NCBI RefSeq assembly: GCF_964204645.1
Contig: NC_134029.1
Location: 15,556,950 to 15,620,949, forward strand
From: Tubulanus polymorphus
Lineage: Eukaryota; Animalia; Nemertea
DNA: 64,000 bases
Direction: 5' to 3'
The notes below the pieces were generated by a model. It made no database searches. It saw only the letters and a list, made by a program, of their open reading frames with translations, and was not told the origin of the DNA. A program made the translations under genes and the position numbers. Position 1 is the first letter of the stretch, and each line of letters begins with the position of its first letter. Shown piece by piece: positions 17,930 to 62,579 of the stretch.

Positions 17930-18553
17930 TTATGTAACTATATTTTCATTATCATATTTCTTAGTGTTTGCTCCTAATATTTCATTTACAATGTTTGATC
18001 CTAATATTTCATAAGCATCGGTTAAATCTAATTCATCTTTATTAGGTGTTGCTAATAATAAATCTTCATATAATTCTTTACCATTTACTTTTTTATTTGA
18101 AACAAAGTTTGTAACATATATAAATGGGTGTTCTATAAATTCTCTTAAACCAACGCGTTCTCTAACATTAGTAATATGTATCTTTGTATTCATATGTTTA
18201 TTCCAATTTGATGGAGCGTTTGAAAATTCGCCTTTACAATAATCACAATAATTTCTATTTTCACTAATATTTAATATTATTTCATTATTAGATGTAGAAG
18301 GTATTGCATTATTAGATGTAGAAGGTATTACATTATTAGATGTAGAAGGTATTACATTATTATCAATTACATTACTTAAATTATCAACAACACCACTTTT
18401 ATTATTATCGATTTCTATTAGTTTAGTTTTATAAATTTTGAAAATAGGATCAAATATCAAAGCTATATTACAAGGTACTACATAATATAAACCATCATTA
18501 TTTTCATGTGTATCGATGTATGGCATATGTTTATATACTTTACCTCCTTCCAT
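17930..18553 (-). CDS. Polinton accessory ORF with a C2H2 zinc finger and 3x NN(V/A)IPSTS repeats
   Basis: YCDYCK..WNKHMNTKIH; 24-bp tandem repeat at about 18283-18360; TAAATG start. Confidence 0.55.
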   Translation of the reverse strand: MEGGKVYKHMPYIDTHENNDGLYYVVPCNIALIFDPIFKIYKTKLIEIDNNKSGVVDNLSNVIDNNVIPSTSNNVIPSTSNNAIPSTSNNEIILNISENRNYCDYCKGEFSNAPSNWNKHMNTKIHITNVRERVGLREFIEHPFIYVTNFVSNKKVNGKELYEDLLLATPNKDELDLTDAYEILGSNIVNEILGANTKKYDNENIVT

Positions 18554-18585
18554 TTATTATATAAATTTTTATTAAAGTTAAAATT

Positions 18586-19815
18586 CTAATACATAACACT
18601 ATTTAATTGAGAATTTACAATATTTAATTGCGCGTCAGATATAACATAAATGTGAAATTGTTGATTCTTTTATTCTTTGTCATGAATAATTGTATTCCAT
18701 CTTTAGTGTTCTGTAGTTTTTTTCCAGAACCATGTAATGGATTATCCTCTGTTGTTCTAAAATCTAACCATCATGCATATTTATTACCGGTATAATAATC
18801 AATTTGATTAATATTACAATTTTCAGATGATTTTACTTTTTCATTCATAAAATGTTTTCTAATTTCTGGCCATTGATCAATCATTCTCATTCCTTGACAA
18901 AATATTGTATTTGCTATTCCTTCGATAGTTATTTCTACTTTTGTTATTTTAGGATTATAATAATTATCAACATTTATTGCACCATTAGTATATGTTGCAA
19001 TGGTAAAAAATATTAATATACCTTTAATAGATCTTCTTGGGAAGTTAATATTCTCATTAATTATTTCATCATTTGCATTAATAGTTACAGTTTTAAATTT
19101 ATCAATATAATCATATAATAATGAAAATCCTTGATTGTATTGAGTTTGAATTGTGTTAGCAATATTTTCATCAGTTACTGTATCATATTCTAAACATATA
19201 TTCGATAATTTATAACCCCTATCTTTATTAACGCTAGATATTACAATTTCATTTACAGGAGCAAATGTTATCTCAAATATAACGTCTTCTTGAATTGCGT
19301 ATTTATATAAAGGCGCATTATTATTTATCAATTCAAAGTCTAATGGAATTTTATATTTGCTTCCATATATTCTTTTTTACTAATTTATCTATAGCATTAG
19401 TTAATATTGCATTATGTGCTTCTGATCTTAATTTATTTTGGTTTTCTGATTGGATTCCTTGAAATATCATATTATTTCTTTATATTAAATCTTTATAATG
19501 CATAAATAAATTATAATCATCTAATGAGAAAACTGTTTCTGGACCGATCTTTATTGTTAATTTTTTAATCAAATATCGTCCAACATTATCAACAACGTAA
19601 TTATTATTATTACCGATTACTTTTATATCAGCTGATAAATAAATACTATTTGGAACATAAAAAGTATTTTGTGTTAATCGAGGAATTCTAACATATAAAG
19701 TTTCATCGGGATTAATATTAGAAGGGTTATGAGTAATTATATGATGTGATCTTTCTGCTTTAATAGCATTAGATATTCTATGATTCTTAGAAGGATTGAT
19801 ATAACTCCCACTCAT
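18586..19815 (-). pseudogene. Major capsid protein, frameshifted
   Basis: ITHNPSNINPDETLYVRIP..LSNICLEYD..PRRSIKGILIFF..YALWLDFRT; highly similar to 62580-63860. Confidence 0.8.
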
Positions 19816-19834
19816 TTATTTAACAAAAAATTAA

Positions 19835-21265
19835 TTATTTATTTTTTATCATGTTTACTAACCCAAAAATAATTGCACTTACAACTGTAATTAAAAATAA
19901 AATAATATGTTCAGCAGCAAAGTTAAGAATATTCCCAGCAGATTTCAATATAAAACCAACAATCGATGCAATAACTCCGGGTAATGCTGCAGCAGATTTT
20001 TTAGATAGTTCCCATAAATATTTTGCTAATTTCTTTAAACCATCTTTAACTTTATCTTGTATAGAATTATTATTATCTGGTGGTTTATCCGGTTTATTGG
20101 GAGTAGGAGTAGATTTCAAAGAATTTGATATTGCCAAACCAATTGTTGTAAATAACATAGTTACAGCTGTTAGAATTGAAAGAATTGTTATTCCTTCTAA
20201 TTTGAATAATAATTTTATTCTATCTTACAACGATATTTCAGAATTTGGTTTTATCAACAAATCTTTAAAAATAACTTTTAATCTATTAATATTATAATCA
20301 TATGATTTTAATAATAATTTAATTTCTTCTTTTTGTAATTCTATGTTATATTCTAAATCATCTTTTTCTTTTTCTAAATACGCATTTCTTTTTTTAAATT
20401 CAATTTCTTCAATAACTTTATTATCTCTATCTAATTTTAGTTGTTCTATTTCTTTAATTTTATCAGTTCTATCTTTTTCCAAAGTTCTAATTTTAAAATC
20501 TCTTATACTTTTATCATGCGCAATTTCATCAGCTTCATTTCTTATACTAACAATTTCTCTTATTGCTTTATCAGAAAATATATCTAAATCGTCTAATTCT
20601 TGATCTGTTGCATCAAGTAATCCATTTGGTAAAAGTTTTTCAATTGGAACTTTATTTGATTTAAGTTTACCAGAAGTTGTTTCTGTTTCTAAATTATTAT
20701 CGATTGTTTCAAATAATTTTTCAATTCTTTGTTTGAATACTTTTCTATTTTTATTTATTTCTTCTTGTGTTACATCTTCTATTTCATTACTATTTCTTAT
20801 TCTTTTAATTCTATCTGGTTCTAATTTTCCCAAAGTTGATTCCGCTAATATTTTATCTTGATTTTTATAAGAGATATCAATATAATAATCATCTTTCAAA
20901 CGATAATAATATTCACCATCTAAATATTTTAATTCTTGTACTAAATATCTAGCGCCTCTATCATTGATATTATATCCAGAATTTTCAAATACATGTTTGA
21001 AATCATAAATATATTCATTATATTCTAAATTTTGCTTTAATAAACCTTGATTTTCATTTTCAGGATTTATTCTCGATCTAGTTCTTCTATCAAGTTCATC
21101 TGTTGATGGGCCTTTAGAACCTCTATCTGCTAAATTAGAATTATATGATGATGAATCATCATTATCAATATTAATATCAGCAGACACATAATCATCATTG
21201 TTAGTATTGACATCATTATTATTTCCCATTTCTTCCATTTCATAATCTTCTCCACCTTCTTCCAT
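19835..21265 (-). pseudogene. Large coiled-coil protein with C-terminal hydrophobic helices; premature stop at 20225
   Basis: ORFs 20225-21265 and 19835-20158 are in the same frame; C-terminus is homologous to 63880-64000. Confidence 0.6.
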
Positions 21266-21281
21266 TTACATAATAAAAAAA

Positions 21282-21518
21282 TTAAAATTTGAAATATAAT
21301 ATTCCTCCGATTACAATTCCTATAAAAGTTAAAGCTAATTTAGCATTTTCATGGGATTTATTATCATTATCAGTTTTAATTATATCATGTTGAATATTAT
21401 CAGTTTTTATATCTTCTGATGTATTGTAATCTTTTATTTTAGAATCATTATTTAATTTAATATTATTAGTTTTAGTTTCTGTTGATTGAATATGTTTTTT
21501 ATTTTTATCGCCTTCCAT
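21282..21518 (-). CDS. Small Polinton protein with a C-terminal transmembrane helix
   Basis: TAAATG start; LALTFIGIVIGGILYF. Confidence 0.5.
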   Translation of the reverse strand: MEGDKNKKHIQSTETKTNNIKLNNDSKIKDYNTSEDIKTDNIQHDIIKTDNDNKSHENAKLALTFIGIVIGGILYFKF

Positions 21519-22575
21519 TTAATTTTGGAGCAGTAATAATCTTTTTATTTAAATCATTTAATCCAAATGAATTATTTATTGTTGCAGTTTTAATTAGATT
21601 ATTATAACCAATTATATTTCCCATCTTTAATACTAAATCATTAGAAATAATTAATAGATCAGGGCCTATACAATAATTTAGTCTAATATGTGATTTATCT
21701 AAATAATTTTGATATCTTACAATGTTTTCTGGAATCGATCTATTTTTATCATTATGAATGGAATCTTCAAATAATACTTTGAATTGTTTCTGCGCATCAA
21801 ATGAAGTGTTATCATTTCCAACTATTGGTGATCTTGTTTCAACTTGCGCACCTAGAATACATATCAAATAAGTTCTAATAGATTGATTTATTCTTTGTAT
21901 ACCTGATTTTGTAAAACCTTCACCATTTTCTAAAATGAAATAAACCCAACCATTATTATTATCAATGTTATAATTATGATAAGCTGAAATTCTATGCATA
22001 TAATCAATTTCATACTCTTCACCAACACCTTGCAATTTACCATGCGCTCTAAAATCGGAATTAATATTTATGTTAAATTCATTACATATCTTATAAAACT
22101 TAGATAGATTAATATTATTATCCAATTCTTTAAAATATTTAGATCTGGGTAAAGGACATTCTAATTCATTTAATATCATTCTGATTTGAAAATATGCGTG
22201 AAATCTAAATATTGTGTGAATTAATTTTAAATCAGAATAATTCAAATTTTTATCTAAGTTATTTAAATGATCATTCCAGCTTATACCACAACCAGTTGTT
22301 GCACAATAAACAGCAAAATTTAATTGATTCTGCCAATATTTCATATTAGATTTTACTTTATATATATGATATTCATCTCGAGTAAAAGTAACTTCATATG
22401 TATTAAATATATTTTCCATTTTAGAAATAAAAAACTGTGATTCAGTAACATAAATTTCTAAATTAGTTAATGAATTTAAAACTACATTTTTATATGTAAT
22501 ATTTTTGTTAAAACCTATTGCAGGAATATTATATTCAATTGATTTATTATATTGGAAAGCTTTTGGAAACCCCAT
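21505..22575 (-). CDS. Polinton protein of unknown function (356 aa)
   Basis: Intact ORF, TAAATG start; WQNQLNFAVYCATTGCGIS and FHAYFQIR motifs. Confidence 0.7.
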   Translation of the reverse strand: MGFPKAFQYNKSIEYNIPAIGFNKNITYKNVVLNSLTNLEIYVTESQFFISKMENIFNTYEVTFTRDEYHIYKVKSNMKYWQNQLNFAVYCATTGCGISWNDHLNNLDKNLNYSDLKLIHTIFRFHAYFQIRMILNELECPLPRSKYFKELDNNINLSKFYKICNEFNININSDFRAHGKLQGVGEEYEIDYMHRISAYHNYNIDNNNGWVYFILENGEGFTKSGIQRINQSIRTYLICILGAQVETRSPIVGNDNTSFDAQKQFKVLFEDSIHNDKNRSIPENIVRYQNYLDKSHIRLNYCIGPDLLIISNDLVLKMGNIIGYNNLIKTATINNSFGLNDLNKKIITAPKLNGRR

Positions 22576-22589
22576 TTATATAATTAAAA

Positions 22590-23027
22590 AATTAATAATT
22601 AACTAATTCTTTTAATAATTTATCTTGTTCTTCAACTGTTATATGACCATTTAAACTTATTATATAATCTAGTGTATTTTCAATTTATTAATCTCTTTTA
22701 TATTAGTTTTAATTTTTTCTTTATTACTTTTTATATTTAATTTTGAACTTATACCAGTTAAAACACTTGAACTTAATCCTAACACACCAATTGATATAGC
22801 TAAAGGTGTAAATGGTGAAAATATTGCTAGAAATGTTATTACAGAACTAATTGTAACCGAACCACTAATAATAAGATAATATATAATTTTAGATTTTAGA
22901 TATTTTTTCTTTTTTATCTTCAAATTCAAATTTAGTCACTTTCAAATTCTAATATTTGTTTTTGTAAATATATTTTTAATTTAGTTTTATTTATATCATG
23001 AGGAATAATATCAATATTATCATCCAT
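22590..23027 (-). pseudogene. Small two-TM Polinton protein, frameshifted
   Basis: TAAATG start at 23027; hydrophobic stretch in ORF 22669-22929. Confidence 0.5.
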
Positions 23028-23044
23028 TTATTTAGCAAAAAAAT

Positions 23045-23480
23045 TACTAACTAGTAAATCTATACGCTACAAATATAACAATAACTGTTCCACCTAAAAT
23101 CCATATTATTTCATATTTCTGTTGTTCTTTACTTGGCTTTACTTGGGGCATAATAATCTGATAATTTAGGTTTGTATAGATGTAATTTTTCTTTATTGGT
23201 TACCGCGTTATATAAACTCATTGCATCTTCAACTGATTGAAAATCTCTGTGTGAAATTTTCTGATCATATAATTCCTTGTTAACATAATCCATATAGTTT
23301 TGTCTCTTTTCTCCATATTCTTCTGCTGCTTTATTATATTTTTTCTAATGCTAAGTTATGTCTTTTTTGTTCTGTTAATGATCCATTTTTATCAATATGT
23401 TTAAATAAATATCCACCACCAGTAAATGCTAAAGCGTTAACAATTGCCGATCCCATAATAGTTATAACTGCAGAAGCCAT
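23045..23480 (-). pseudogene. Small Polinton protein (MASAVITIMGSAIVNALAFTGGGYLF..EQKRHNLALEK), frameshifted
   Basis: Manual translation from TAAATG at 23480; N- and C-terminal hydrophobic segments. Confidence 0.55.
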
Positions 23481-23504
23481 TTATTTAGTAAAATCATTAC
23501 GCAT

Positions 23505-23726
23505 TTATATGGGTGGAATATATTTTTGTTTTTCCAAATAATCAATAGTTAAATTAGATAAAGTAACTGCTAATGTAGATTTTAAAATATCATTTATATC
23601 AAATCTATCAACATTAACACTTCCCATTTTAAATACTTTTTTTAATACCATTGAATAACCAACAGTTCCAACTGATAGTAATGCTCCATTATATAATCCA
23701 GTTATTATCCACTTATTACCACTCAT
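23505..23726 (-). CDS. 73-aa Polinton membrane protein
   Basis: Intact ORF; its ATG directly follows the upstream TAA (TAAATG). Confidence 0.6.
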   Translation of the reverse strand: MSGNKWIITGLYNGALLSVGTVGYSMVLKKVFKMGSVNVDRFDINDILKSTLAVTLSNLTIDYLEKQKYIPPI

Positions 23727-24071
23727 TTATTTATCAAAAAAATTACAAAAATCATCAAAATATTTAGTTAACATATTTATGATTAATTCAACATTTATTT
23801 CATTATTCCTTTTATGATTATCATATATTTTGGTTAATATGTTTTTAATATCATCAATAATTCCATCTTCATTTAATTCATAATATTCTAAAGGCGTTTT
23901 AATTAAATCAATTACTTTTTCCATATTATAATTTTCTTTATTAATCATTGATGCATTGTTAAATGATTTACTTTTTATATCAGTCATTACATCATTTAGT
24001 TTAATTCTTATTTCTTTACCATGTTTAAAATCAAACCCAAAACATATACTCGGTCCAATAGTTATATTCAT
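23727..24071 (-). CDS. 114-aa Polinton hypothetical protein
   Basis: Intact ORF with TAAATG start. Confidence 0.55.
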   Translation of the reverse strand: MNITIGPSICFGFDFKHGKEIRIKLNDVMTDIKSKSFNNASMINKENYNMEKVIDLIKTPLEYYELNEDGIIDDIKNILTKIYDNHKRNNEINVELIINMLTKYFDDFCNFFDK

Positions 24072-24095
24072 TTATATAGTGAAAAAAATTACTCT

Positions 24096-24846
24096 TTACA
24101 TCTTATAAACTAATTCATAAATTACAGGAAAGTTATTCAAATCAATTAAATATCCATTATGATTTATGATTTCTAATCTAAAATTATTAAATTGAGGAAT
24201 GCATGGTTTGAAATCACATTCAGCTAAATTATAATTTATTTGCGTTCCAAATTCTTTAACATTCTTCAATGGTAAAATGTTTAATAAACCAGAATTACAA
24301 GTAATATCTTTAGTTGCTTCGAATGTTTTTGTAGGATCAATTAAATTGCAATAAATATAAAAGTGTGTAAAAGGTATTAAGTTTGGTGTAGCATCAGCAT
24401 TGCGCATCCTTACATCTGGGGTTATTCCTAAAATTTTAGCTAAAGGTTTTTTAACTAGAAATTGATGTTGATCTTCATTACCTAATTTTATTCTTATTTT
24501 ATCGGAGCTATCACTTTTAATCAGTCTTTATCCAAATCCAGCAGATGCACCCATTTTCAACCGAGCTCTTCTATTAATTTCCTGCGCTAATGTATCTAAA
24601 TTATATAATCCTGGTTTAAGATAAAGATGAAACCATTTACTTTTATTTCTATCATGAATTAAAAAGAAAATGTTCAATAGTTTTATCCGATACATTGTAA
24701 AAAGAATTACATAAACTTATATTTACTAATTTTAAATCAACACAATTTTTGAATTCTCTATCTAATTGTACCAGTAAATTATGTGATTTATAATTTGTAA
24801 GCATTCTTGAATCAACAAATATTCTGTATTCTTTTAATTCCGCCAT
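24096..24846 (-). pseudogene. Minor capsid protein (penton), frameshifted
   Basis: IFVDSR..NSFYNV..PGLYNL..FYIYCNLI..LLNILPL..LEIINHNGYLIDLN, a pattern typical of Polinton/virophage pentons. Confidence 0.72.
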
Positions 24847-24863
24847 TTATTTTACATATTTTC

Positions 24864-25217
24864 TTATTCGAAATCTATTTCATCGTGCCCTTTTTCATTC
24901 TTACCTTTGTATACGAAATAGAAATCACCAGAACATAATTCTTCTAGATCTTCACTTGATAATCTATGAAATCTATCCGGTAAATATGTTCTGAATTTAT
25001 ATGTATTTCCTTTTAATCCTTCATATTCTAAGTGTATAACTAATCTATCTCCATATTTGTTAGTAACTGTAACAATATCTGTACTTAGATATTTCTTATG
25101 GATTATTAATTCTTTTAACTTCTTAAATTTATAATCTACTGATTTGACATTTGAAGTATCTTTTATTCTATCTAAAAATAATTTGTTGTTCTCACTGTTT
25201 GCTTTTTTACTCTCCAT
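24864..25217 (-). CDS. 117-aa Polinton protein, possibly OB-fold/SSB-like
   Basis: Intact ORF next to pol; near-identical copy at 46272-46610. Confidence 0.6.
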   Translation of the reverse strand: MESKKANSENNKLFLDRIKDTSNVKSVDYKFKKLKELIIHKKYLSTDIVTVTNKYGDRLVIHLEYEGLKGNTYKFRTYLPDRFHRLSSEDLEELCSGDFYFVYKGKNEKGHDEIDFE

Positions 25218-25246
25218 TTATAATACATATTTTTATTAAAATTTGA

Positions 25247-28200
25247 TTAACACGTTAGAATTCTTTTCATTATCTCGTTCTCTTTGGTTTCTTCTCTTTT
25301 AAATTTTAGATATTCATCTAAATTGCAACCATAAGCAACTGTATGAATTCCATCATCTAAAATATATCTTTTATCATCAAATGGGTTTAGACTTATCTTT
25401 TCAATTTCTTCAATAAAAATTTCATGATCTTCAGATCTTAAACATCTCATCTTATGTTTTCTAACTTCTTCATTGAATATACAATTGATGTAATCTTTGA
25501 AATGAATATTCTTTTCTACTACACTTTTGGTTATTCCTTTTAACTTTTTAGGTTCATGTTCTTTAGTTTTATATGAATACATTTTAGATCTAATTCCTAT
25601 GAATTCTATCATTTCTTCACCACCTAATTCATCCTTAAACTTCCCTGGAACTTTTTTATTATCACTGCTAAACAATTCATGATCTTTAGGATAGTTGCTG
25701 AAATCAAAATGATGTTTTAATGTTTTTAAATAATCAGTTATGTTATTAGTTGTTATCTTTAATATGTAAGAATCTGTATCAAAATATAATATTTCTATAT
25801 GTTTTTCTCCAAAAAGTGGTTGTAATACATTATAATAGAATTCATACATTAGTAATTTTGATATTTCTAAAACTGAAGCACCAACATAGATTGGTTTATT
25901 AAATTTCATAGAAGATCTTCTCATTTTAACTGCAGCTAAATTTTCATCAGATATTCTGTTACCTAAAAACTTAGGATATGATTGTAAATGCCTTATCCTT
26001 TTGCCATTACTTACTAACTCAATATCATTTCTATTTCTAATATTTTCACAAGTCTTACCATAGAATGCATTGTTCATTAACTTGAAGAAATCTTTCTCAA
26101 AATCAGTTTTAGCTTCAGTTCTCCGTTTGGTGTTAAAATCTATATATTTTTCTAACCATTTAGATTGGCTAAATGAAATATATCTATGTACTTTTTTTAG
26201 GACCATTCCTTGTTTTAGATAAAACTTTAACATTCTATAATGTACTACATAATTATATTTATCTTCTTGAGTTACCATTAACTTTTCTGTATGAATATGA
26301 TTTTCGGGTTTAATTCCTTTTTGATAATTTGATAATTCTTCATGAGTAACAGTTTTATGTTCGGGGCAGTATGCTAGATTTCTAGATTTAAATTTAATAT
26401 GTTCAGGATATTCTAAATCTACAACAAAAAAGTAACCAGTATCTGAATCATCTGCATTCTTCATGAGTAACAGTTTTATGTTCGGGGCAGTATGCTAGAT
26501 TTCTAGATTTAAATTTAATATGTTCAGGATATTCTAAATCTACAACAAAAAAGTAACCAGTATCTGAATCATCTGCAATATCTAGGATTCTTTTCTTCCA
26601 ATCAAATTTATCATTATTTTCATGTTGTAAAACTTCACTTATTTCAAATACTCCATAGGGTTGTGGTTCCATCAATGCCCAACCGTATAAATCATTTGCA
26701 TCTATATATAATAACTTATATCCAGGGTTATCATTTACATTGAAATATCTATCACCTAATACACCTGAAACTCCTCCTCTTATAGATTTTTCAAATAATA
26801 GTAATTGATCTATATTTGTTAACAAATCCATTTTTATATCTGTAAATTTTAATCCACAATCCCATGTTAAACCTGGGCTAGAATAACAATGACACGGATC
26901 AATGTTAAAATATTTTAGGTTTACATCTCTAAACCTTTCAAATATATCAGTTAATAAAAATACATCTGATTTTAGATATAAATCTACTAATTGCCCATGA
27001 TTTTTCATTCCAAAATGATTCCAAATATTCAATGTTCTATTATATCCTTCATCTTTAACATATTCATTTTTTAATTCATCATAGAATTGTTCTTTTAATA
27101 ATTCAGTTATATTGAAATCATTATGTGATTTATAAAATGAATATGGAATTGCGCCTTTATATCTCATTAATTGAAAATCATCATTATTTGGGTAGTGTTG
27201 CTTTAATATTTTTAATTCATCATCAACTAATGATTTTGATAAGTTATCTAATGAACTATCAAAAAATCTATATGAATCTATAAATCTTAAACACCCAAAT
27301 TGGAATGATATATAATTCTCAGATGTTCTAGCTAACATTTTAAATCTATAAGTTGGTATTTTATCTTTTGATCTATTTGAATTTAATCTTTCTATTTCAT
27401 TATTAATTTCTTCTATTTTATGGCATAACTGTTTGATGAATAAATGTGCGTCATAGCCTGATAGATTATGAAATATAACTGGTATAAAATTGATTTTCTT
27501 AGCTTGTAAGTTACAATTCTCATGTGCAGCGCCTCTAAACTTTCCATTCAAATGATCATGGTCTCTTACTTTTTTATCTTTATAATTAAATATCTTTTCA
27601 CAATAATAACATTTATCTGCAAACTCAAATGCTTCTTTATCTTCTTCTGTCATCATAATTTCTATATTTTCATTTAACTTTTCATTAAATTTTATTTCAT
27701 ATTCAATTAATAAGTCACAAAAATGATTGATAACATTTTCATTACTATAATGATAATATTCACTTCTAATTAGTTCTGGATAATCAGATTTAATATATAA
27801 CCCAAAAGCTGCGGCTGATTGATGAATCTTTTTAATTGTATTTGTTATTGGCGGTTCTTCTGAAAAATCATTTTCATTAGAATTTAATTTCTTTCTTTTA
27901 TAATATATTTCTTTTCTATCTTGATCAGTTAATTTAACTTTAGTTCTTTTAGTTTAGTTCTTTATTTAATGATTCAAAATCTCCATATACGACAAATGGA
28001 ACTTTATTTTTGTAATCATATTTTTTTTATTCTAATATTTTATCTTTTTCATTTGGTAAAACTAATTTACAATAATCATGATTATCACATAATTGTTTAT
28101 GATTTAATAATGCACTTTCAGTTCTGAATTTATGTAAACATTTTCTACATAGATATATTTTATTATCAAAATCATTTTCTGATTTAAAAAATAAATCAAT

Positions 28201-29430
28201 TCTTTTAATCCACATATAATGATTCTCATAATATAATATATCTATAACATCATTTGACTCATAATCTTTTGATAGGTATAAAAGTTCTAATGTATAATGT
28301 TTTATATTGTTACCTTTTGTATTTGGAAATTTGATTAAATCAAATACATTTATTCTTAAATTATTATCTCTTTCTATTTTTGGGATATTTTTGATTCCAA
28401 CAGGGTAATTATCTATCTTATAATTTTTTTCAAATGGTTTATAATGTGTTAATCTATAAGTATGTTTATTATAATCTTCAACTGGGTGTAAACAACTAAT
28501 TATTGCCCATAGAAAACATTTATCATCAGAATTTTGTACATTTATAACAGCATTAGTTTTAAATGGTAATTTGATATAACTCGATGCTTCAATATCTGGT
28601 CCTTTATAATATGATAAATTATTTTCATCAATTGGTTTTGATTTAGTTAACTTATTATATTTTGTGTTATAAACATGTAAAGTCATAAATATTATTTCAT
28701 CAAATATTAAACCTGATCCTTCAAAATATTTCTCTTCTATTTTAGTTTTTTCTTCATTATAACATTTATCTAATTTATCATCTATATGTTGTTTAGATAT
28801 AATATGTTGTGAATGAGAATTTATATTATATATTGGTTTATCTTCACATTTTATAAACTTTACTTTAGAAGATATACTAATTTTAGGGTATTCAACATCT
28901 GTAATTATTTTTATGATATTTTTCATATTTTCTAAATGTTTTTTATTTTCTTCTAATGATTTTCCTTTATGAAATTTAAACTCAATAGCAGCTGGGCCAA
29001 TATCACTTTTGAATGCTTCAGTTATTTCTATATCTTTTTTATTATCTAATGAATTAATATAATTTCTTACATCTTCCATGTATGGTCTTTTATTGTTTAA
29101 TTTATTTCTTTTAATTGTCTTATGTTTCTTATCATTATCAAAATAATCTTCACCTAAAATATCATTATTCATATTTCTAATATGACTTTTAGATTTTAAA
29201 TGTTCTTTATAATATCTTTTATCACTGAATGATTGATTACATGTATCACATTTGTATGTTTCTTTTTCATTCTTTAATTCATATAATTTAGTTTCTAATA
29301 TATCATCTTCATATTCTAATTTCAATTTATTCTCTAAACGTGTTTTAGTTTTATTGTGTCTTGTTTTTGAGATTTATCTATATTTATTCTACATGTTGAA
29401 CAGTAATACTTATTTGCTTCGATTTTAATA
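25247..29430 (-). pseudogene. Protein-primed family B DNA polymerase (pPolB), intein-free, frameshifted
   Basis: N-terminal zinc fingers; EndoVII-like VRDHDHLNGKFRGAAHENCN; exonuclease FHNLSGYD and YLKSDV; motif A YIDANDLYG; motif B KLMNNAFYGK; motif C YFDTDS. Confidence 0.96.
26336..26577. repeat. 121-bp tandem duplication that frameshifts pPolB
   Basis: ttcttcatgagtaac...tctgca at 26336 and 26457. Confidence 0.92.
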
Positions 29431-29687
29431 CTAAATTTTTTTTAAAATTGATTTTAGAAGTTCAATGATTTAAATATTTAAATTATTTCAATCACACTTT
29501 ACTAACACTTTTAATGTTTAAAAATCTAACTCATACAAATATAAATATTGAAATAATGTTTAAAATATATCTATATATCTATTCTATAAGAGCTCGTACT
29601 CTCGTACTCTGGCTTGAAAGCCTACTTTTCTAATAACTTATATATGTTATTCATTTATATTTTATTCATGTATATGAATATTTTAAG

Positions 29688-30098
29688 AGTAATAGGGGTT
29701 TACTTGTTCTAGGTTAAAGGTTGAATGGTCGAGTTCATTAAAAAACAAATATTAAAAGTAATTTAAAACTATAATATATTTTCATAGTCGTGTGTATTTT
29801 AGTTAAATAATAGAATTATTAATTATTATTTGAATATATTTGATTATATGTATTTGTGTATTGTAAATAAATCAATTGGTCGCGGAGCGGAGCTTTAGCA
29901 AAGCGGAGCGACCAATTGATATAATACAATATGCTTTTTAAATTTAAATTATTAATATCTTAGAATAAATATTTAGTTATAATATGAAATACACACGGCT
30001 GTGAAAATATATTATAGTTTTAAATTACTTTTAATATTTGTTTTTTAATGAGCTCGACCGTTCGACCTTTGGCCTAGAACAACTAAACCCCTATTACT
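29688..30098 (+). repeat. 411-bp terminal palindrome of Polinton B
   Basis: agtaataggggttt...aaacccctattact arms with a central atcaattggtcgc/gcgaccaattgat stem. Confidence 0.88.
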
Positions 30099-35472: not shown

Positions 35473-35510
<38 letters not shown>

Positions 35511-46271: not shown

Positions 46272-46610
46272 AAATTTGATATTAAAATGGAAAGCGAATT
46301 CCTAAATAGAATAAAATATACTACAAATGTAAAATCTGTAGATTATAAATTTAAGAAGTTAACAGAATTAACATTACATAAGAAATATTTAATTACAAAT
46401 ATTTATATAGTTACTAACAAATATGGAGATAAATTAGTTATTCACTTAGAATATGAAGGATTAAAAGGAAATATTAAATTCAGAACATATTTACCAGATA
46501 GATTTCGTAGATTATCAAGTAAAGATTTAGAAGAATTATGTTCTGGGGATTTCTATTTCATATACAAAGGTAAGAATGAAAAATGGCACCATGAAATAGA
46601 TTTTGAATAA
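46272..46610 (+). CDS. Copy of the 117-aa Polinton protein
   Basis: Near-identical to 24864-25217. Confidence 0.6.
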   Translation, partial: KFDIKMESEFLNRIKYTTNVKSVDYKFKKLTELTLHKKYLITNIYIVTNKYGDKLVIHLEYEGLKGNIKFRTYLPDRFRRLSSKDLEELCSGDFYFIYKGKNEKWHHEIDFE

Positions 46611-48574: not shown

Positions 48575-49291
48575 ATGAAAGAAGAAATGGAATTTAAAAT
48601 TGAAACAAAAGAATTTAATGAATTATTTTCACTATTTAACATTAAAAATTGTATCTCAGCAAAAAATTTAGTGTATGGAAGACAATATAAAATTGATGAT
48701 ATTACTGTAATTAATCAGATATTATTAAATGAAACATATTTAATTACTGAACTAATAGATACTCTAGATAATGGTGCCAAAATCCTAAAATATTTAATAC
48801 AGTTTTAAATTATAAAGGTAATTTAGATGAAAACATAATAAATATTCTTAAATTTCCTTTTAATGAAAGAGAAAGTGATATAATACTTTCAAAAAGTAAT
48901 GATAGGATAGACTTAAGAATTGAAACGACAATTATATTATTGTAATTTTGATAATAAACAAATTATCTATAATGAAAATTCATCAAATATGGGAATTCAA
49001 TGTGATTTAGAAAACAATAATTCTTTTAAAGATATTGCAATTCAATGTGATTTAGAAAACAATAATTCTTTTAAAGATATTGCAATTCAGTGTGATTTAG
49101 AAAATAGTAAATCTTTTAAAGATATTGCAATTCAATGTGATTTAGAAAATGAATTCAAAAGATTTAATCCTAATGAAAAAATTGTTATTGCGGAGGTAAA
49201 TATTCAAAATCACATAAATCAAAGCATTATCAAACAATTAAACATAAAAACTGGTGTAAAGAGTAACAATTCTACATTAAAAATAAATTAA
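48575..49291 (+). pseudogene. Accessory ORF with KDIAIQCD repeats, frameshifted; mirror copy at about 52950-53656 (-)
   Basis: ORFs 48575-48808 and 48920-49291; mirror ORF 53131-53559; paralogue at 47104-47703. Confidence 0.6.
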
Positions 49292-49339
49292 ATAGTCAAA
49301 TAATTATTGAATTAAGTTAAATGATTTAAATATCTAATA

Positions 49340-49585
49340 GACTGTTAAAATAATAAATTGTCAGACTGTTAAATGTTAAATTGTTTGACTGTTAAAATAA
49401 TAAATTGTTTGACTGTTGAAATGTTAAATTGTTAGACTGTTGAAGTGATAAATTGTTTGACAGTTGAAATGTTAAATTGTTTGACTGTTAAAATGTTTAA
49501 TTGTTCGACTGTTAAAATGATAAATTGTTTGACTGTTGAAATGCTAAATTGTCAGACTGTTGAAATGTTAAATTGTTTAACTGTA
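49340..49585. repeat. 21-22-bp minisatellite in the left arm of E
   Basis: gactgttgaaatgttaaattgttt-type units. Confidence 0.85.
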
Positions 49586-49698
49586 AATTTAATTGTTATT
49601 TGATTTAATCATTTAAGAGTTTAATATTTTAAAAATGATTATAAAATATTTAATTAAAAACTAGCAAATATTTATTAATTTTCTAGTTTCTTAAATAA

Positions 49699-49896
49699 AT
49701 GGATGGTTTCATCCCAACTGGGAAAAGTGATTTAAAACATTATCTTGTAGCAGGAGGATTAATATTTGCGGCATTATACTTTTACTATGAAAATATTTCA
49801 AAAGATTTGATGAATGAAAATATAAAATTGAGTAAGAAATTGAAAAAATTAAATGGAAATAAAAATAATCATAAAAAAGTTATTGAATCAGATTAG
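49699..49896 (+). CDS. 65-aa single-TM accessory protein; mirror copy 51938-52135 (-)
   Basis: TAAATG start; HYLVAGGLIFAALYFYY; third copy at 47762. Confidence 0.55.
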   Translation: MDGFIPTGKSDLKHYLVAGGLIFAALYFYYENISKDLMNENIKLSKKLKKLNGNKNNHKKVIESD

Positions 49897-49916
49897 TGAA
49901 TTAATTAAATGAATAA

Positions 49917-50219
49917 ATGAGTGGAAATATATTAAACTTATTACATCTAATATATAAAAATCAACAGAATATTAAATCAATTATTGTGCTTACAGGTTTA
50001 TTTTCATTCTCAGTTTATACTATAAAACAGTTGTTAGAATTTTATGATTCTTGTAAAATTAGATACGCTGAATTGAAAGATAACATAAATTATATTTCAG
50101 ATCGAATAAATAATAGTAAGTGTTGTGAAGTATGTAATACAAGATATAAAAATTTAAAGAGTTTAAAAACTCATAAATATATTCATGAATTAGATGAGAA
50201 ATTTCATAATTCAAATTGA
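49917..50219 (+). CDS. 100-aa TM plus C2H2 zinc-finger accessory protein; mirror copy 51615-51917 (-)
   Basis: CEVCNTRYKNLKSLKTHKYIH; TAAATG start. Confidence 0.55.
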   Translation: MSGNILNLLHLIYKNQQNIKSIIVLTGLFSFSVYTIKQLLEFYDSCKIRYAELKDNINYISDRINNSKCCEVCNTRYKNLKSLKTHKYIHELDEKFHNSN

Positions 50220-52249
50220 GAATAAGACTGTTAAATTGGTTGAAAATATAAAAATAGATAATATTATAACTATTTTTATTTTTAGATTAATAATTTATAT
50301 TTATAATTATTATAAAACTAATTTATATATATATTTACTAGACGTACGAGTAAGAATGTAAGAAAGTAAGATTTCTTGGATTCTTGGATTCTTACTCGTA
50401 CGTCTAGTACATAGATATATAAATAGTTTTATCATATATGTTTCTGTTTCAATATTTATTTATCTCACGGATTTATTATAAATATTTGGACAAGTATAAA
50501 TCATATTTAATTATGTATTAACATTTATAATTAATAAAAGAGGATTACAATGAACCCGCTAGATTGTTTAACTGTTTAAGTATTAAATTGTGTACATTGT
50601 ATATTCATAAATTAAATGAAATAAATCACGACTAAGACTGTTAAATTAGTTGAACTGTATGAAATATTGTATGAAATATTAGTTAATTAAAAAAGGGGGT
50701 TGAGGTATCAATGTATTAAATACATATTAAATACGTATTAATGTATAAAATGCATATTATGTTTTATTTCTGAAAATAAAGTAACAGAAGTAATTTATGT
50801 TTTAATTTATTCAAATATGATATTGTAAATTCTTTACATTTGACTAGGATAATACAAGAGTGATATTAGTTAGTTGGCTTATTCAATAAGAGAAACAATG
50901 AAATAATACAAGAGTGATACTAACAGTTAAAGTTATTGAATTTCTTGTTAAATCTATTTGAATTCTAGTCAATCCTTGTTAACCAATAGCGTGAATAGAA
51001 ATCAAAAAGATTTAAATAAAAAAACAATAAGTTAAATAAGTTAGTATTAGATAAAGTAACTTATTGTTTTTTTATTTAAATCTTTTTGATTTCTATTCAC
51101 GCTATTGGTTAACAAGAATTGACTAGAATTCAAATAGATTTAACAAGAAATTCAATAACTTTAACTGTTAGTATCACTCTTGTATTATTTCATTGTTTCT
51201 CTTATTGAATTCGTGATTTATTTCATTTAGTTTATGAATATACAATGTACACAATTTAATACTTAAACAGTTAAACAATCTAGCGGGTTCATTGTAATCC
51301 TCTTTTATTAATGATAAATGTAAATACATAATTGAATATGATTTATACTTGTCCAAATATTTATAATAAATCCGTGAGATAAATAAATATTGAAACAGAA
51401 ATATATGTGATAAAACTATTTATATATCTATGTACTCGACGTACGAGTAAGAATCCAAGAAATCTTACTTTCTTACTTTCTTACTCGTACGTCTAGTAAA
51501 TATATATATAAATTAGTTTTATAATAATTATAAATATAAATTATTAATCTAAAAATAAAAATAGTTATAATATTATCTATTTTTATATTTTCAACCAATT
51601 TAACAGTCTTATTCTCAATTTGAATTATGAAATTTCTCATCTAATTCATGAATATATTTATGAGTTTTTAAACTCTTTAAATTTTTATATCTTTTATTAC
51701 ATACTTCACAACACTTAATATTATTTATTCGATCTGAAATATAATTTATGTTATCTTTCAATTCAGCGTATCTAATTTTACAAGAATCATAAAATTCTAA
51801 CAACTGTTTTATAGTATAAACTGAAAATGAAAATAAACCTGTAAGCATAATAATTGATTTAATATTCTGTTGATTTTTATATATTAGATGTAATAAGTTT
51901 AATATATTTTCACTCATTTATTTATTTAATTAATTCACTAATCTGATTCAATAACTTTTTTATGATTATTTTTATTTCCATTTAATTTTTTCAATTTCTT
52001 ACTCAATTTTATATTTTCATTCATCAAATCTTTTGAAATATTTTCATAGTAAAAGTATAATGCCGCCAATATTAATCCTCCTGCTACAAGATAATGTTTT
52101 ACATCACTTTTCCCAGTTGGGATGAAACAATCCATTTATTTAAGAAAGAAATTAGAAAATTAATAAATATTTGCTAGTTCATAATTAAATATTTTATAAT
52201 CATTTTTAAAATATTAAACTTTTAAATGATTAAATCAAATAACAATTAA

Positions 52250-52882
52250 ATTTACAGTTAAACAATTTAACATTTCAACAGTCTAACAATTTAACATTTC
52301 AACAGTCAAACAATTTATCATTTTAACAGTCGAACAATTAAACATTTTAACAGTCAAACAATTTAACATTTCAACTGTCAAACAATTTATCACTTCAACA
52401 GTCGAACAATTAAACATTTTAACAGTCAAACAATTTAACATTTCAACTGTCAAACAATTTATCACTTCAACAGTCTAACAATATAACATTTCAACTGTCA
52501 AACAATTTATCATTTTAACAGTCGAACAATTAAACATTTTAACAGTCAAACAATTTAACATTTCAACTATCAAACAATTTAACACTTCAACAGTCTAACA
52601 ATTTAACATTTCAACAGTCAAACAATTTTTCATTTTAACAGTCGAACAATTGAACATTTTAACAGTCAAACAATTTAACATTTCAACAGTCAAACAATTT
52701 ATCATTTTAACAGTCGAACAATTAAACATTTTAACAGTCAGTCAATTTAACATTTCAACTGTCAAACAATTTATCACTTCAACAGTCTAACAATTTAACA
52801 TTTCAAAAGTCAAACAATTTATTATTTTAACAGTCGAACAATTTAACATTTAGCAGTCTGACAATTTATCATTTTAACAGTC
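52250..52882. repeat. Expanded 21-22-bp minisatellite in the right arm of E
   Basis: aacagtcaaacaatttaacatttc-type units with ~86-bp higher-order periodicity. Confidence 0.9.
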
Positions 52883-54463
52883 TATTAGATATTTAAATCA
52901 TTTAACTTAATTCAATAATTATTTGACTATTTAATTTATTTTTTATGTAGAATTGTTACTCTTTACACCAGTTTTTATGTTTAATTGTTTGATAATGCTT
53001 TGATTTACGTGATTTTGAATATTTACCTCCGCAATAACAATGTATTTTTTCATTAGGATTAAATCTTTTGAATTCATTTTCTAAATCAAATTGAATTGCA
53101 ATATCTTCAAAAGATTTACTATTTTCTAAATCACACTGAATTGCAATATCTTTTAAAAGAATTATTGTTTTCTAAATCACATTGAATTGCAATATCTTTA
53201 GAAGAATTGTTGTTTTCTAAATCACATTGAATTCCAATATTTGATGAATTTTCATTATAGATAATTTGTTTATTATCAAAATTACAATAATATAATTGTC
53301 GTTTTTCAACTCTTAAGTCTATCCTATCATTACTTTTTGAAAGTATTATATCACTTTCTCTTTCATTAAAAGGAAATTTAAGAATATTTATTATGTTTTC
53401 ATCTAAATTACCTTTATAATTTAAAACTGTATTAAATATTTTAGGATTTTTGGCACCATTATCTAGAGTATCTATTAGTTCAGTAATTAAATATGTTTCA
53501 TTTAATAATATCTGATTAATTACAGTAATATTATCAATTTTATATTGTCTTCCATACACTAAATTTTTTGCTGAGATACAATTTTTAATGTTAAATAGTG
53601 AAAATAATTCATCAAAATTCTTTTATTTCAATTTTAAATTCCATTTCTTCTTTCATTTATATAGCAAAATTATTACTCACACTTTTAACATTGAAAATCT
53701 AAATTATTTTACTCACACTTTACTCACACTTTTAACATTGAAAATCTAAATTATTTTACTCACACTTTACTCACACTTTTAACATTGAACAATTTTTTCA
53801 TTTTATTAGCGCTTTTATATTAAAAAGTTTATTTTTGGAAAAAAGCAAAGAAAAAATTAATTTTTCTTAACACACTACTTTTGTCTATCTACGTTTTTTC
53901 ATGACGTGATTTTTGGGATTTATCGATGTATTTTTTACAATATGGACAATAATATTGATTTTTATTGACATAATTGTTTTCTGTATGTTGTTCATTATCC
54001 CCCATTTATAAGGAAAAAAAATTACTTGTGGTGATGAGTGGTGTCTCGTACTCTCGTACTCTGATCTGAAAGCCCACTCTCCCAATTACTAACAGTTGTT
54101 AGAATTCTATGATCATTGCAAAATTAGATACGCTGAATTAAAAGATAACATAAAATTATCTATCAGATAGAATTAATAATATTTAGTGTTGTGCAATATG
54201 TAATAAGAAGTATAAAAATGAAAAATCATTAAGAAATCATAATTATATTCATTAACTCAATGAAAAATTATATGAATCAAAATAAGATATATGATATTTC
54301 AATTAATACCCCTTGTGTCTTTATTATCTTTAGTAGGTTTAATTACTAGTTACTTTTTATATTGAAAATTGATTTTTTATTATCCGAAATCTATATTTTA
54401 TCTTATTTTCTAGATTATTATGCTAACATTTTACTCACACTTTTAAAACATGAATATTTTAAG

Positions 54464-54613
54464 AGTAAATAGGAATAAGTTGTTTCAGGTTAAAGGTTGA
54501 AGGGGCGAGTGAGTAAAAAATAAAAATGAATTCGAGCGTGCGAGAATTTATTTTTATTTTTTATGAGCTTGGCCCCTCGACCTTTGGCCTGAAACAACTT
54601 ATTCCTATTTACT
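54464..54613 (+). repeat. 150-bp terminal palindrome of Polinton D
   Basis: agtaaataggaataagttgtttcagg...cctgaaacaacttattcctatttact. Confidence 0.88.
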
Positions 54614-54900: not shown

Positions 54901-55022
54901 GTAAGGCATAGATAATAAGTTGTCTAACCAAAAAGAGTTATAAGCGAGCATAATTATTTCATGAACGTCTTCGTTAACATATAAGCTCATTTGCCATCCA
55001 TTAGCCAATTACTTTTGACCAG

Positions 55023-56683: not shown

Positions 56684-56839
56684 ACAAAAGAGAGGGATAC
56701 TGTTATAAGAAATTTGAAAATGGACGATGTCATGATCCCCGAAGAACCAGGACAAGTCTAGCCAACTGTTGCTGCACATCAGGTGCTGCGTGGAGTTGGG
56801 GGAATGGAGCCTGTGAAGTCTGTCCTGACCGTGACCAAG
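56684..56839 (+). CDS. Fibrillin-like host gene, TB (8-Cys) domain exon
   Basis: ttccag|...|gtatgg, 156 nt; DKREGYCYKKFENGRCHDPRRTRTSLANCCCTSGAAWSWGNGACEVCP has the CCC..G.AW..CE.CP motif of fibrillin/LTBP TB domains. Confidence 0.93.
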
Positions 56840-58635: not shown

Positions 58636-60078
58636 TTAGCAAATCATTACGATCGTCAGATCTTTACTAGAATATGACCAGGATATGACCAATTAGCGGA
58701 CGATTTCAGGCACAGACCAATAGATCTTATCACCAACATATCCAGGACAGACATCGCCACCAATGAGACTCTATTCAAGTTTGAAACCTTGATTATTTCG
58801 GTTCGAACAAAGTGGCTGATTGTTTTGGAAATTTCATAAGATGTGAAAATCTAGAACTTAACATTTTGTTGTCGTACTAGGAGAAAAGACGATAAGCTTC
58901 TTGAAAGGCAGAGGCAAAACTTGTCTGGGCTTGCTAGTCTGGGAAGGTTATCATAAGGCCAAAACTAATAGATTAGTGTTCCTTATAAAGTAATCATATT
59001 AAATCCATTGTGTTTAAACATAGGCAGATCTATTAGCTCTATCACTAGTCCGAGATTTTGTTCGTTCACATTGAGAAGATAATGAAAGATACATCATCTT
59101 TCTTGTATTTATGGTACAGATGACACGGGGGATGCCTAATTGGATATGTGCAAATTTCACACTCAAGTCAACTGTATATTTCCTTGAAGTCAATAGTACC
59201 ATAGTTATCATGTGTATGAGTAATTGTAATATGGCGTTTTCAGACCAGAGGACTAGAGGACGACACACCACTCATCACCACAAGTAGTTTTCCCCATAAT
59301 AAATGGGAGATAGAAAAGCATTCTTAGCAACAATAAATAACAGAATAAAACCAACAAAAAACAATTTGAAATAAAAAAGTTAGTCGGTGTTACAAAAGAA
59401 ATTGAACACAAAATAATGAAATTAGAAAAGATAAAAACTAAATATAGAAGAAAGTAACAGCAAATTTAAGCTACTGTAATGTTAGTACAACGCGAGAATT
59501 TAAAGTATTTTTACCTAATAAATGGGTTGCATTGAGTACAGAGGAATTAAAAGATTTAGAAGGATTTAAAATAATTTACCATGGGAAAAATGAAGACGGG
59601 CATCATGATTTTGAAGTTTTTGATTAAAAAAATAAATTGATAATAAAATTAATTAAATATTAAGAATAAAAAAATAATATCAAGAATCCGAAATGACTTA
59701 TCTGGACAATTTAATTGCTCCGCATAGACTGACAAAAGTAGTGAGATATTCAATTAATTAAAATAAAATCATTTTTTTGCTTTTTTTCTAAAATATTATT
59801 CCATTTTTTTTTTGTGAATTTTGGAATATCAGAAGTATTTTCATTTTTAATAGCAGTAGTTTCAGAATTATTGATAACATAAATTTTATTTGATTTCTTA
59901 TACCAACTACACCCAAACAAAATGAATACAATTACAAATCCAGTTGTAAAATACAGATATTTATCAAATATTCTATTATTAGAAGGAGGAGAAATAACAA
60001 TATTTTCACCATTTTTATTGACATTTTTATTACTTATTTTTTCTTTTACAGCTTTTTTATATTCCTGTGATTTAATTC

Positions 60079-60705
60079 CTAATTGCCGAGACCATTCAAT
60101 TTGTTTCTGAGTTCTCGGTTTTTTTCTTCACAGTTAATCCTTTCACCTCTTCCACTTCGCCCATTTATTGTAGAAAAATTTTTACTTTCAAGATTTGAAA
60201 ATGTTATAGCTCCAGTTGATAATAGCGTCATAAATCCCCCTAATTGAAATGATGAATATCCAATCCATTTATTTAATTCAGTCATAACTAAATAATCATT
60301 TTTTAAATCGGAATATGATTTATTTTCATCTTGAATTGGCAGCATATAATTACATAATTTACTATAACCTTTTACTACATTTTCTGATATCGCATCATTA
60401 ATTCTAGCTATTCTCGCAGTTTCATTAATCTTAAATAATTTATTAATTTCATCTGATTTCATTGTATCTAATTCATCATAAGTTACATTTTTACTAATAA
60501 AACTTTTACATTTCCCAGATGCTATTAATATTTCTAATTGATGTTTGCAATAAAGGTAATATTCATAATTATTGTTTGTAGTTATATCATTCAAAGCACC
60601 ATTATTATCTGACGCTTATTTTGTTTCTGTTATACCTAAATCATCCAAAGTTTTTTCAATTGGAACATCACTATTTTTAGATTTTATTTTCTTTTCACCT
60701 CCCAT
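60079..60705 (-). pseudogene. Polinton hypothetical protein downstream of the ATPase
   Basis: TAAATG at 60705; 171-aa ORF 60079-60594. Confidence 0.5.
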
Positions 60706-60734
60706 TTATATAAGAAACAATTTAGTTGCGTTGT

Positions 60735-61020
60735 TGCAACTAGAATTCAACTAGAATTTAACTAGAATGTAAATAAAAATATACTAGATTAACAAGCTAG
60801 TTGAAATATTGTTTTTATTTATTTTTGTTGAATTTTATTTGATTTTTGTTTCAACTACCAATAACTAGAATTCAACTAGAATGTAACTAAAAATATACTA
60901 GATTAACAAGCTTGTTGAAATATTGTTTTTATTTATTTTTTTTTTTGTTTCAACTACCAATAACTAAAATTTAACTAGAATGTAACTAAAAATATACTAG
61001 ATTAACAAGCTAGTTGAATT
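60735..61020. repeat. Three imperfect copies of a ~90-130-bp repeat
   Basis: aactagaatgtaa.taaaaatatactagattaacaagct.gttgaa occurs three times. Confidence 0.8.
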
Positions 61021-61034
61021 TAAATAAATTCATA

Positions 61035-61624
61035 TTTAAATCGGTGTTGTAATCGAAATAGTAATTTTGATCTTTTATCATTTTTCAATTTATCCATATA
61101 TTATGTAAATCATGTGGAATCATATCATTTTCCTCAAGTGCATTTTTCATCGATTTCCTATCTTTATTGTAGAATAATACTAAAAATCTTATATTCTCCC
61201 TAAAATCTTTCACAATCGAATTATATTTTTGATTTAAAACACACGTTGTTATTCCAAAATGTCTCCCAGAGAAAGCTAAATAGCATAACTCACTTTCTCT
61301 AACTTTTGAATCATGTAAATTTGCCCAATCATCTATGATAAATAATGCATTTGATCCTTTATAGATATCAATTGCTATTTTGATACAATTATCTAAATTT
61401 TCTTCAACTGTTTTAGGATTTAATACAATAAATTTATTATTTCTAGTAATATTTCTATCATAAGTTTGATTAAATTCAGACGTTTGACAAAATAATACTA
61501 TATTATCAAAATAGTTTTTATAAATAGTTTCTAATAAATTTAATATAAATTAAGTTTTTCGACAATTTGTTACACCAGAAATTAACATATTATGAGGCTC
61601 AAATATAAATAATTCCCTATTCAT
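61035..61624 (-). pseudogene. A32/FtsK-HerA-type packaging ATPase with internal stops
   Basis: Manual translation: MLISGVTNCRKT (degenerate Walker A), LFIIDD (Walker B), SGRHFGIT..NQ..REN. Confidence 0.85.
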
Positions 61625-62548
61625 TTATGTATTTTTAATTTTACTCGATAATATCCATTCATTGTATTTATCTGGCCATCCAACCCATTTTACTAAAGAA
61701 TATTTTTTTCTATTAACAGTTTTTGTTTTTAATACTTTTTCAATTTTATATTCTTGTTCTAGATTTTCAGTAGTTAAACTTAATTCTTCTTCATAAAAGT
61801 ACCCATCTACTTCTTTACCATTTAAATCTTCTAATTTATAGACATATGGTTTTGTTGTTATTACCTTTTTTATTTTGTATATATCTCTAGTAAAATTACG
61901 ATCATATCCTTTGTCAAATATCTTTTCATACTTAGAAATTCTAACATTTTGACCAACTTTAAATTTAGGTTCACCAAAATCATCTATAAGAAATAATATA
62001 AATTATTCCATATAAAATTTTGTGATTATCTAAGAGTTCATGAACAAGTGAATGATCGAATTCTTTTCCATCATCAAATTGTATTTTTTCTGGTTTTAGT
62101 TTATCATCCGAAAGAAATTTTCTTAAAACATTTGATGTTTGTACAGCATCTTTTTTGTAAAGTGGGAAGCTCCATACATAACCACTAAAAATATCAATTA
62201 TATTTAATATCCACCAATAATCATTATTATCTTTCTCAACATTTTTCTTATCAATTAAATCTCCTTGCCACTGTTGATCTACATAACTTACCATAGTTTT
62301 ACGAGTTTTATATTTTCTAACAATTTTTTTATGCGTTGTATATGTTGGTTGTTCTAACATAAATTCATTTTATCTTTATATTTAACTAAACTTTGTGGGA
62401 TTATCTTATCTAATTTATCTAATTTTACTTGACGCCATATGTTTTTTACAGAAGAATAAGCAACCGAACTCTCAGGATTATAATATAAATTTCTTAGATA
62501 TTGTTCTCTAGTATTTCGAGTTTTTTTTACCCCCCCCCCCCCCCCCAT
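61625..62548 (-). pseudogene. Retroviral-like (rve) integrase with C-terminal chromodomain; frameshifted and internally deleted
   Basis: YYNPESSVAYSS; QWQGDLID..IIDIFS..IQFDDGKEF; KFKVGQNVRISK..FDKGY..YFYEEEL; LVKWVGWPDKYNEW. Confidence 0.92.
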
Positions 62549-62579
62549 TTATATATCGTTAATTTTAAACTTTATATTT

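Follow-up and report, generated by a model that had tools for sequence, protein, structure and literature searches.

Animal Polintons might live as autonomous viruses of the nucleus or as parasites in the manner of virophages, a question raised by a 64,000-nucleotide stretch of the genome of the nemertean Tubulanus polymorphus (NC_134029.1, positions 15,556,950 to 15,620,949; hereafter the window), in which AT-rich islands carry Polinton genes beginning, one after another, with TAAATG. A sequence-only reading of this DNA had likened the hexamer to the poxvirus late promoter and proposed that the element is transcribed by the RNA polymerase of a helper nucleocytoplasmic large DNA virus (NCLDV). 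The TAAATG observation is confirmed and reaches beyond the window. As to its meaning, we consider it probable that the T-run and the TAAAT(G) following it form a poxvirus-type late or intermediate promoter. Its likely reader is an RNA polymerase that a co-infecting virus of pox-like type supplies, in which case this lineage of Polintons would be a virophage-like hyperparasite; a clade-wide pox-type late promoter would then be the sequence signature that speaks to the question.

TAAATG is present at all 25 coordinates first listed (one of them, 5346, is really 5345), and 17 of the 25 are anchored as gene starts by alignment to the N-termini of intact relatives. One of them, contrary to what had been supposed, is no start: 21518 is an internal methionine (the KLMEG of an intact protein of the related locus L001) of the gene that starts at 22575 and is frameshifted near 21518. 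The site at 4705 seems to have arisen by partial duplication of the start at 5345, and those at 47104, 47762, 48232, 48575, 49699 and 49917 are without homologs in the fetched loci, although most have a motif-keeping paralog within the window, at positions (51917, 52135, 53656, 54005) that were not on the earlier list. TAA directly precedes ATG at 17 of the 18 homology-anchored Polinton starts (a set picked with the motif list already known, and omitting the unplaceable starts of PolB, HNH and the second capsid copy), the eighteenth being TAAATAATG. Of 1241 other ATGs in the islands, 79 share this arrangement (Fisher P = 4e-19), as do 362 of 5310 first ATGs in shuffled sequence, a chance rate of 6-7%.

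Relatives were taken from a capsid alignment search that gave 395 metagenome matches. The best 80 were fetched, together with 3 genome contigs; three near pairs among these loci are near-duplicates. A mechanical count on them, using the first ATG of clustered open reading frames (ORFs), is less biased than the window count. It places TAA before ATG at 50 of 59 starts in loci L001-L015 (50 of 64 when five dropped antisense shadow ORFs are included), as against 16 of 410 starts in the remaining loci, a denominator that includes mis-called starts of broken genes and owes most of its entries to a single family with few records behind it. TAAAT lies within -8 to -3 at 54 of the 59 and 29 of the 410, respectively, and at -8 to -3 in 72 of 77 starts. 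The motif clade spans 20-44% GC and retains the motif at 44% (L004), whereas outgroup loci of 29-31% GC (L053, L055, L066) lack it (0/7); AT content is therefore not the explanation. A quick capsid tree had 48 rows: the window copy, 15 unlabelled proteins and 32 of the 80 loci. Its 14 motif-bearing rows fall on one side with a Shimodaira-Hasegawa-like approximate likelihood ratio (SH-aLRT) support of 93.

The anatomy of the signal was profiled by aligning 68 unique starts on TAAAT, the comparison set being 67 TAAATG sites in the window that are not starts. The T fraction is 0.57-0.88 at -12 to -7 and lower at -6/-5, and the A fraction is 0.69-0.74 at -15/-14. T occupies -10 in 51 of 68 starts versus 23 of 67 non-start sites, and -9 in 88% of starts. 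The T-run that had been said often to precede the hexamer is borne out: it lies 7-12 nt upstream, and TTTT occurs at -14 to -5 of TAAAT in 39 of the 68 starts versus 6 of the 67 other sites (P = 1e-9). The base after TAAAT is G in 64 starts and A in 4. TAAAT is retained where it is displaced from the ATG (TAAATATG, TAAATAATG, TAAATGAATG) and, since it persists when the ATG moves by a few bases, the signal is not bound to translation. Animals favour a purine at -3, and 345 of 448 outgroup starts have one there; clade starts instead have T at this position in 51 of 59 cases, with G at +4 in 45 of 64. A 5' poly(A) leader would resolve the conflict with the Kozak context, because that T would not be transcribed. 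Six of eight divergent gene pairs leave just 19-30 nt between their ATGs, with TAA before ATG on both strands. Sense-strand AATAAA is undepleted in the motif clade (153 observed versus 159 expected; observed/expected ratio, O/E, 0.96) and depleted only in a small AT-rich outgroup (O/E 0.47, 7 genes). AT content plus Kozak context, the explanation named beforehand as the one to beat, fails against the enrichment, the conservation over 20-44% GC and the T at -3. The signal runs through the whole clade, and neither AT content nor Kozak context nor upstream stops account for it.

A promoter of this post-replicative kind would serve a pox-type viral RNA polymerase, which a helper virus would supply to the Polinton; we infer a helper because no RNA-polymerase-sized ORF other than PolB is seen in the window islands or in L001. 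Mavirus offers the model, with a helper's late motif and integrated copies that stay silent until infection. The comparison with late promoters is thus strengthened by the T-run, the 5-7 nt spacer, TAAAT followed by G or A, the clade-wide distribution and the anti-Kozak T at -3. As for the helper-transcribed hyperparasite, the promoter does match the pox-type class; dependence on a helper polymerase is still something we infer, no helper having been found in the viral contigs. If the reading is true, it would extend promoter hijacking, seen in the mimivirid systems of protists, to animals and their pox-type viruses and imply a helper virus yet to be found, and it predicts 5' poly(A) leaders, silence without the helper and activity in poxvirus-infected cells. 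We put forward more tentatively, as a possibility somewhat short of even, that the integrating Polintons of animals include a widespread clade of virophages, wholly dependent on the late transcription machinery of a pox-like virus of invertebrates that awaits discovery, the differing start-proximal motifs of sister clades being fingerprints of different helpers, so that promoter motifs would predict helpers. In the literature searched, which omits most subscription journals, TAAAT(G) promoters are not described for Polintons; two text matches to the motif proved to be primer sequences.

Several points weigh against a pox-type helper. Scans of viral contigs with the capsid, HNH, intein and kinase sequences did not find one, the kinase scan returning a single giant-virus-like contig (L084) that is unrelated and lacks the motif pattern. 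The case is built entirely from sequence, the PolB start was not located, and an integrated nuclear copy must somehow reach a cytoplasmic polymerase. TAAAT is short, and TAAAN is also used by yeast virus-like elements. The T maximum falls at -9 instead of -10; outgroup Polintons likewise have divergent spacers of 34-36 nt, and some carry TAAATG at the ATPase start. The AATAAA test is undiagnostic, coral-type loci being undepleted as well (O/E 1.28). The trait has a single origin on the capsid tree, and the loci are therefore not independent replicates. Finally, the genes of coral polintoviruses (PMC11131425) and of a cavefish Beta adintovirus (PMC8502044) are reported to be transcribed, and the passages on them mention no helper and contain no promoter analysis.

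This last point leads to the alternative that survives best, although we regard it as unlikely: an autonomous nuclear Polinton in which RNA polymerase II of the host, perhaps aided by a zinc-finger factor of the element, starts at TAAAT and yields a near-leaderless mRNA. Besides the transcription reported for related animal Polintons, it is favoured by the equally compact AT-rich promoters adjoining the ATG in outgroup clades, by the small zinc-finger proteins that the element encodes, and by a high copy number in the host that is simplest if movement needs no helper. It fits poorly with a T at -3 that violates the Kozak rule kept by the outgroups and with internal AATAAA, which recurs undepleted every ~170 nt in AT-rich members. 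The host-type elements that could underlie the motif were each rejected: a TATA box (TATAAAT at 24 of 68 starts) would have transcription begin downstream of the invariant Met1, an element like that of YY1 or the translation initiator of short 5' untranslated regions (TISU) would need a fixed ATGGC, which is present in only 18 of 60, and the AG of a splice or trans-splice acceptor occurs at 0 of 68.

Less probable still is a viral-polymerase initiator whose enzyme is not poxviral, be it that of another nucleocytovirus (an egovirus, an asfuvirus-like virus or an unknown lineage), of a cytoplasmic linear element, or of a part of the element that has escaped view, no complete element being present in one piece among the sequences examined. 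Yeast virus-like elements do have a TAAAN initiator with slippage (PMC6211774), and basal egoviruses have been reported in marine sediments and tied to Polintons by gene transfer (10.1101/2024.03.23.586382). The bipartite T-run and TAAAT(G/A), however, specifically fits poxvirus late promoters, PolB is the only product of polymerase size in the window islands and L001, and two further candidates were rejected, the yeast upstream conserved sequence (UCS) ATNTGA being found in 1 of 60 upstream regions and the mimivirus-like early motif AAAANTGA in 2 of 60. A chance or translation-level feature (coupling of stop and restart, an overlapping upstream AATAAA poly(A) signal, or ORF-calling bias together with AT content) is largely refuted and very improbable: the islands are 76% AT, the genes are closely packed and AATAAAT stands at 32 of 68 starts, but 36 of the 68 lack AATAAA, the chance rate is low, just 1 of 50 starts (fetched loci only) has a TAA that ends an upstream ORF, as the sequence-only reading had broadly held, both genes of divergent pairs carry the motif where an upstream gene is absent, and it is kept at 44% GC and absent from AT-rich outgroups.

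The features of the window are collected in the table below.

Table. Polinton-related features of the 64,000-nt window; L-numbers with ranges denote gene families named after the homologous gene in a fetched locus.
Feature	Position	Strand	Remark
Decayed Polinton copy A	1..16003		Bounded by arms of a long inverted repeat at 1-1178 (cut by the window edge) and 14735-16003
TAAATAATG start, TAAAT displaced from ATG	1392..1400	-	Homolog of L001 565-1329 gene; divergent to 1465 gene
Zinc-finger gene, TAAATG start	1462..1467	+	
PolB C-terminal part, broken, with intein/LAGLIDADG insert	2794..4445	-	Insert between YFD and TD of catalytic motif
TAAATG	4703..4708	-	Apparent partial duplicate of 5345 start
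TAAATG start	5343..5348	-	L001 125-469 family
HNH-type endonuclease gene, broken	13603..13981	-	Start not located
Decayed Polinton copy B, capsid to PolB	17930..30070	-	Every gene on minus strand
TAAATG start	18551..18556	-	L011 2461-3687 family; TTTAATAAAAA upstream
Predicted double-jelly-roll major capsid gene, broken	18589..19818	-	TAAATG 19813-19818, T6 run 7-12 nt upstream
TAAATG start	21263..21268	-	L001 4328-5785 family
TAAATG, no start	21516..21521	-	Internal Met of 22575 gene
TAAATG start	22573..22578	-	L001 2996-4324 family
TAAATG start	23025..23030	-	L001 2541-2975 family
TAAATG start	23478..23483	-	L001 2014-2433 family
TAAATG start	23724..23729	-	L001 1733-1960 family
TAAATG start	24069..24074	-	L001 1333-1713 family
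TAAATG start	24844..24849	-	L001 565-1329 family, which we take to be minor capsid
TAAATG start	25215..25220	-	L001 125-469 family
Family B DNA polymerase (PolB) gene in pieces	25250..29373	-	No intein; endonuclease VII-like insert; start not located
AT-rich island C	46170..54500		Polinton fragments and small ORFs, inverted duplication, 24-bp tandem arrays, ~40-bp inverted ends
Island C TAAATG sites	47101, 47759, 48229, 48572, 49696, 49914	+	
Island C TAAATG sites	51920, 52138, 53659, 54008	-	
TAAATG start	59300..59305	+	L001 125-469 family
TAAATG start	60162..60167	-	L001 9951-10343 family
TAAATG start	60703..60708	-	L001 9410-10030 family
A32-like packaging ATPase gene, broken	61023..61627	-	TAAATG 61622-61627
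rve integrase with chromodomain, broken	61628..62551	-	TAAATG 62546-62551
Second major capsid copy	62583..63868	-	Start ATG lost, TAAAT and T-run kept

The islands, at 76% AT, span about 900-5500, 12300-14500, 17850-29700, 46100-54450 and 59250-64000 in surrounding DNA of 38% GC and a CpG observed/expected ratio of 1.01, and the genes read in them (an rve integrase with chromodomain, an A32-like ATPase, PolB pieces and a capsid) mark them as decayed Polinton copies. The 1.2-kb inverted repeat flanking copy A extends past the window edge, no 6-bp target duplication is readable, and this copy is split by host repeats (~5500-12400). The host portion of the window holds Harbinger-type (Myb/SANT, DDE_Tnp_4) and reverse-transcriptase fragments; a Harbinger-type remnant and a fragment of a non-long-terminal-repeat reverse transcriptase sit inside copy A (7168-9916, 11935-12467). 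Read depth over copy B is ~570, as against 6-7 in the lowest host bins (DNA run X5; median of bins, both mates), which puts its family at about 90 copies or above; of 72,029 aligned reads, only 1382 were 99% alike. The inverted duplication of island C (49687-50385 / 51449-52147) is 99% identical and its ~40-bp inverted ends are seen again at 29690 and 30070; the island is possibly a non-autonomous derivative.

The window capsid is 72% identical to an intact relative (P0001) whose structural model, at a predicted local distance difference test (pLDDT) score of 90, matches the capsids of iridovirus, PBCV-1 (Paramecium bursaria chlorella virus 1), African swine fever virus (ASFV) and mavirus (best E 2.5e-16), which on this modelling identifies it as a double-jelly-roll major capsid protein; it is also 36% identical to a coral protein. 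The ATPase and integrase match Pfam Pox_A32 (1.2e-7) and rve (6.5e-9) above cut-off, the latter with Chromo at 1.8e-5. The PolB pieces of copy B show FHNLSGYD, DSYRF, DANDLY, KLMNNAFYG and YFDTD by eye and regular expression, which we take to be PolB-type motifs of a putatively protein-primed enzyme, and presumably belong to the Beta-type PolB group; they gave no polymerase match in Pfam, PHROG or PDB. An intein, unusual in an animal genome, is present in the PolB of copy A and absent from that of copy B. Both the intein and the HNH gene that had been called NCLDV-like do exist, although the label fares less well: their atlas matches are viruses, partly Nucleocytoviricota, at lead level only, the closest relatives of the intein are other Polinton-type PolB inteins in PolB fragments on long contigs, and two phage records match it weakly. 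HNH and deoxynucleoside kinase genes are present in relatives, and the kinase of L001 (10340-10981, minus strand; Pfam dNK 1.7e-31) has a TAAATG start. The capsid, polymerase, integrase and ATPase genes are all broken within the window, and the suggested antiviral protection of the host is unsupported.

Several further observations concern sequences around the starts. In a second promoter class, on non-structural genes, TTTAATAAAA(A) replaces the T-run before TAAATG (window 1465, 18553 and 25217; L001 565 and 11054; L002 2287; L011 2461), and in two gene families a C-rich CACCACTCATCACCACAAGT directly precedes the T-run/TAAATG (5383 and 54043 on the minus strand, 48195 and 59266 on the plus). 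Among the sister clades (L016-L079), the largest group has TTTTCAATTGAAAGTATA ~14 nt upstream of its capsid ATG, and L053, L055 and L070 have TATA/TATAG near the ATG; such motifs may mark other helpers or host promoters. Avoidance of the poxvirus early terminator TTTTTNT was dropped as support: its O/E is 0.38 in the loci, but depletion affects homopolymers at large, and no specific effect is visible in window genes. Coding strands of L001-L015 and of window genes avoid A- and T-runs of 5-7 bases (O/E 0.3-0.8 versus codon shuffles), possibly through selection against polymerase slippage. Some capsid homologs (P0020, L081-L083) carry the names of bacterial or archaeal assemblies and are likely contamination by DNA of the host animal or another eukaryote.

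Among known systems, vaccinia late promoters combine TAAAT(G/A) with T residues set off by a 5-7 bp spacer, a T ten bases upstream being conserved (PMC5294985, PMC11980589), and initiate inside TAAAT with slippage that yields 5' poly(A) (PMC4542343). The Polinton starts share the T-rich core, the 5-7 nt spacer and a TAAAT that overlaps the ATG and is followed by G or A, and a subset has the A-rich core of poxvirus intermediate promoters; unlike in poxviruses, the motif is borne by an element without a recognised RNA polymerase gene, on essentially all genes examined, and its T peak lies at -9. The yeast pGKL elements, which are protein-primed linear DNA with a TAAAN initiator and 5' poly(A) leaders (PMC6211774), would be comparable, but have their own RNA polymerase and need the UCS that is so rare in the Polinton clade. 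A further tie between Polintons and relatives of poxviruses is that of the egoviruses (10.1101/2024.03.23.586382).

With animal Polintons, adintoviruses and coral polintoviruses the element shares capsid, rve-chromo integrase and A32 ATPase, and apparently PolB and inverted repeats. It differs from the outgroup loci, which lack the motif and keep Kozak purines, and no match to an adenain-like maturation protease was found among 42 window ORFs and the scanned ORFs of relatives. Polinton-like viruses occur with entomopoxviruses and have been proposed as poxvirus hyperparasites in animals (PMC11296320); these are highly diverged lineages from occlusion bodies, compared here by description only, and the main text of that report does not contain "promoter", "motif" or "TAAA", its supplement having TAAATG twice, in repeats, and no "promoter". 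Comparable in organisation are small DNA elements that encode a capsid and have a single viral-type promoter in front of their genes: mavirus, whose promoters match the late motif of Cafeteria roenbergensis virus (CroV) and whose integrated copies are silent until infection (10.1101/068312), Sputnik and Guarani with the mimivirus late motif, and Gezel-14T, which shares the early motifs of Phaeocystis globosa virus (PgV; 10.1101/2022.07.28.501842). Mavirus, moreover, has an rve integrase and integrates, as the Polinton would. All four have protist hosts, mimivirid motifs and known helpers, whereas the Polinton described here combines a pox-type motif with an animal host.

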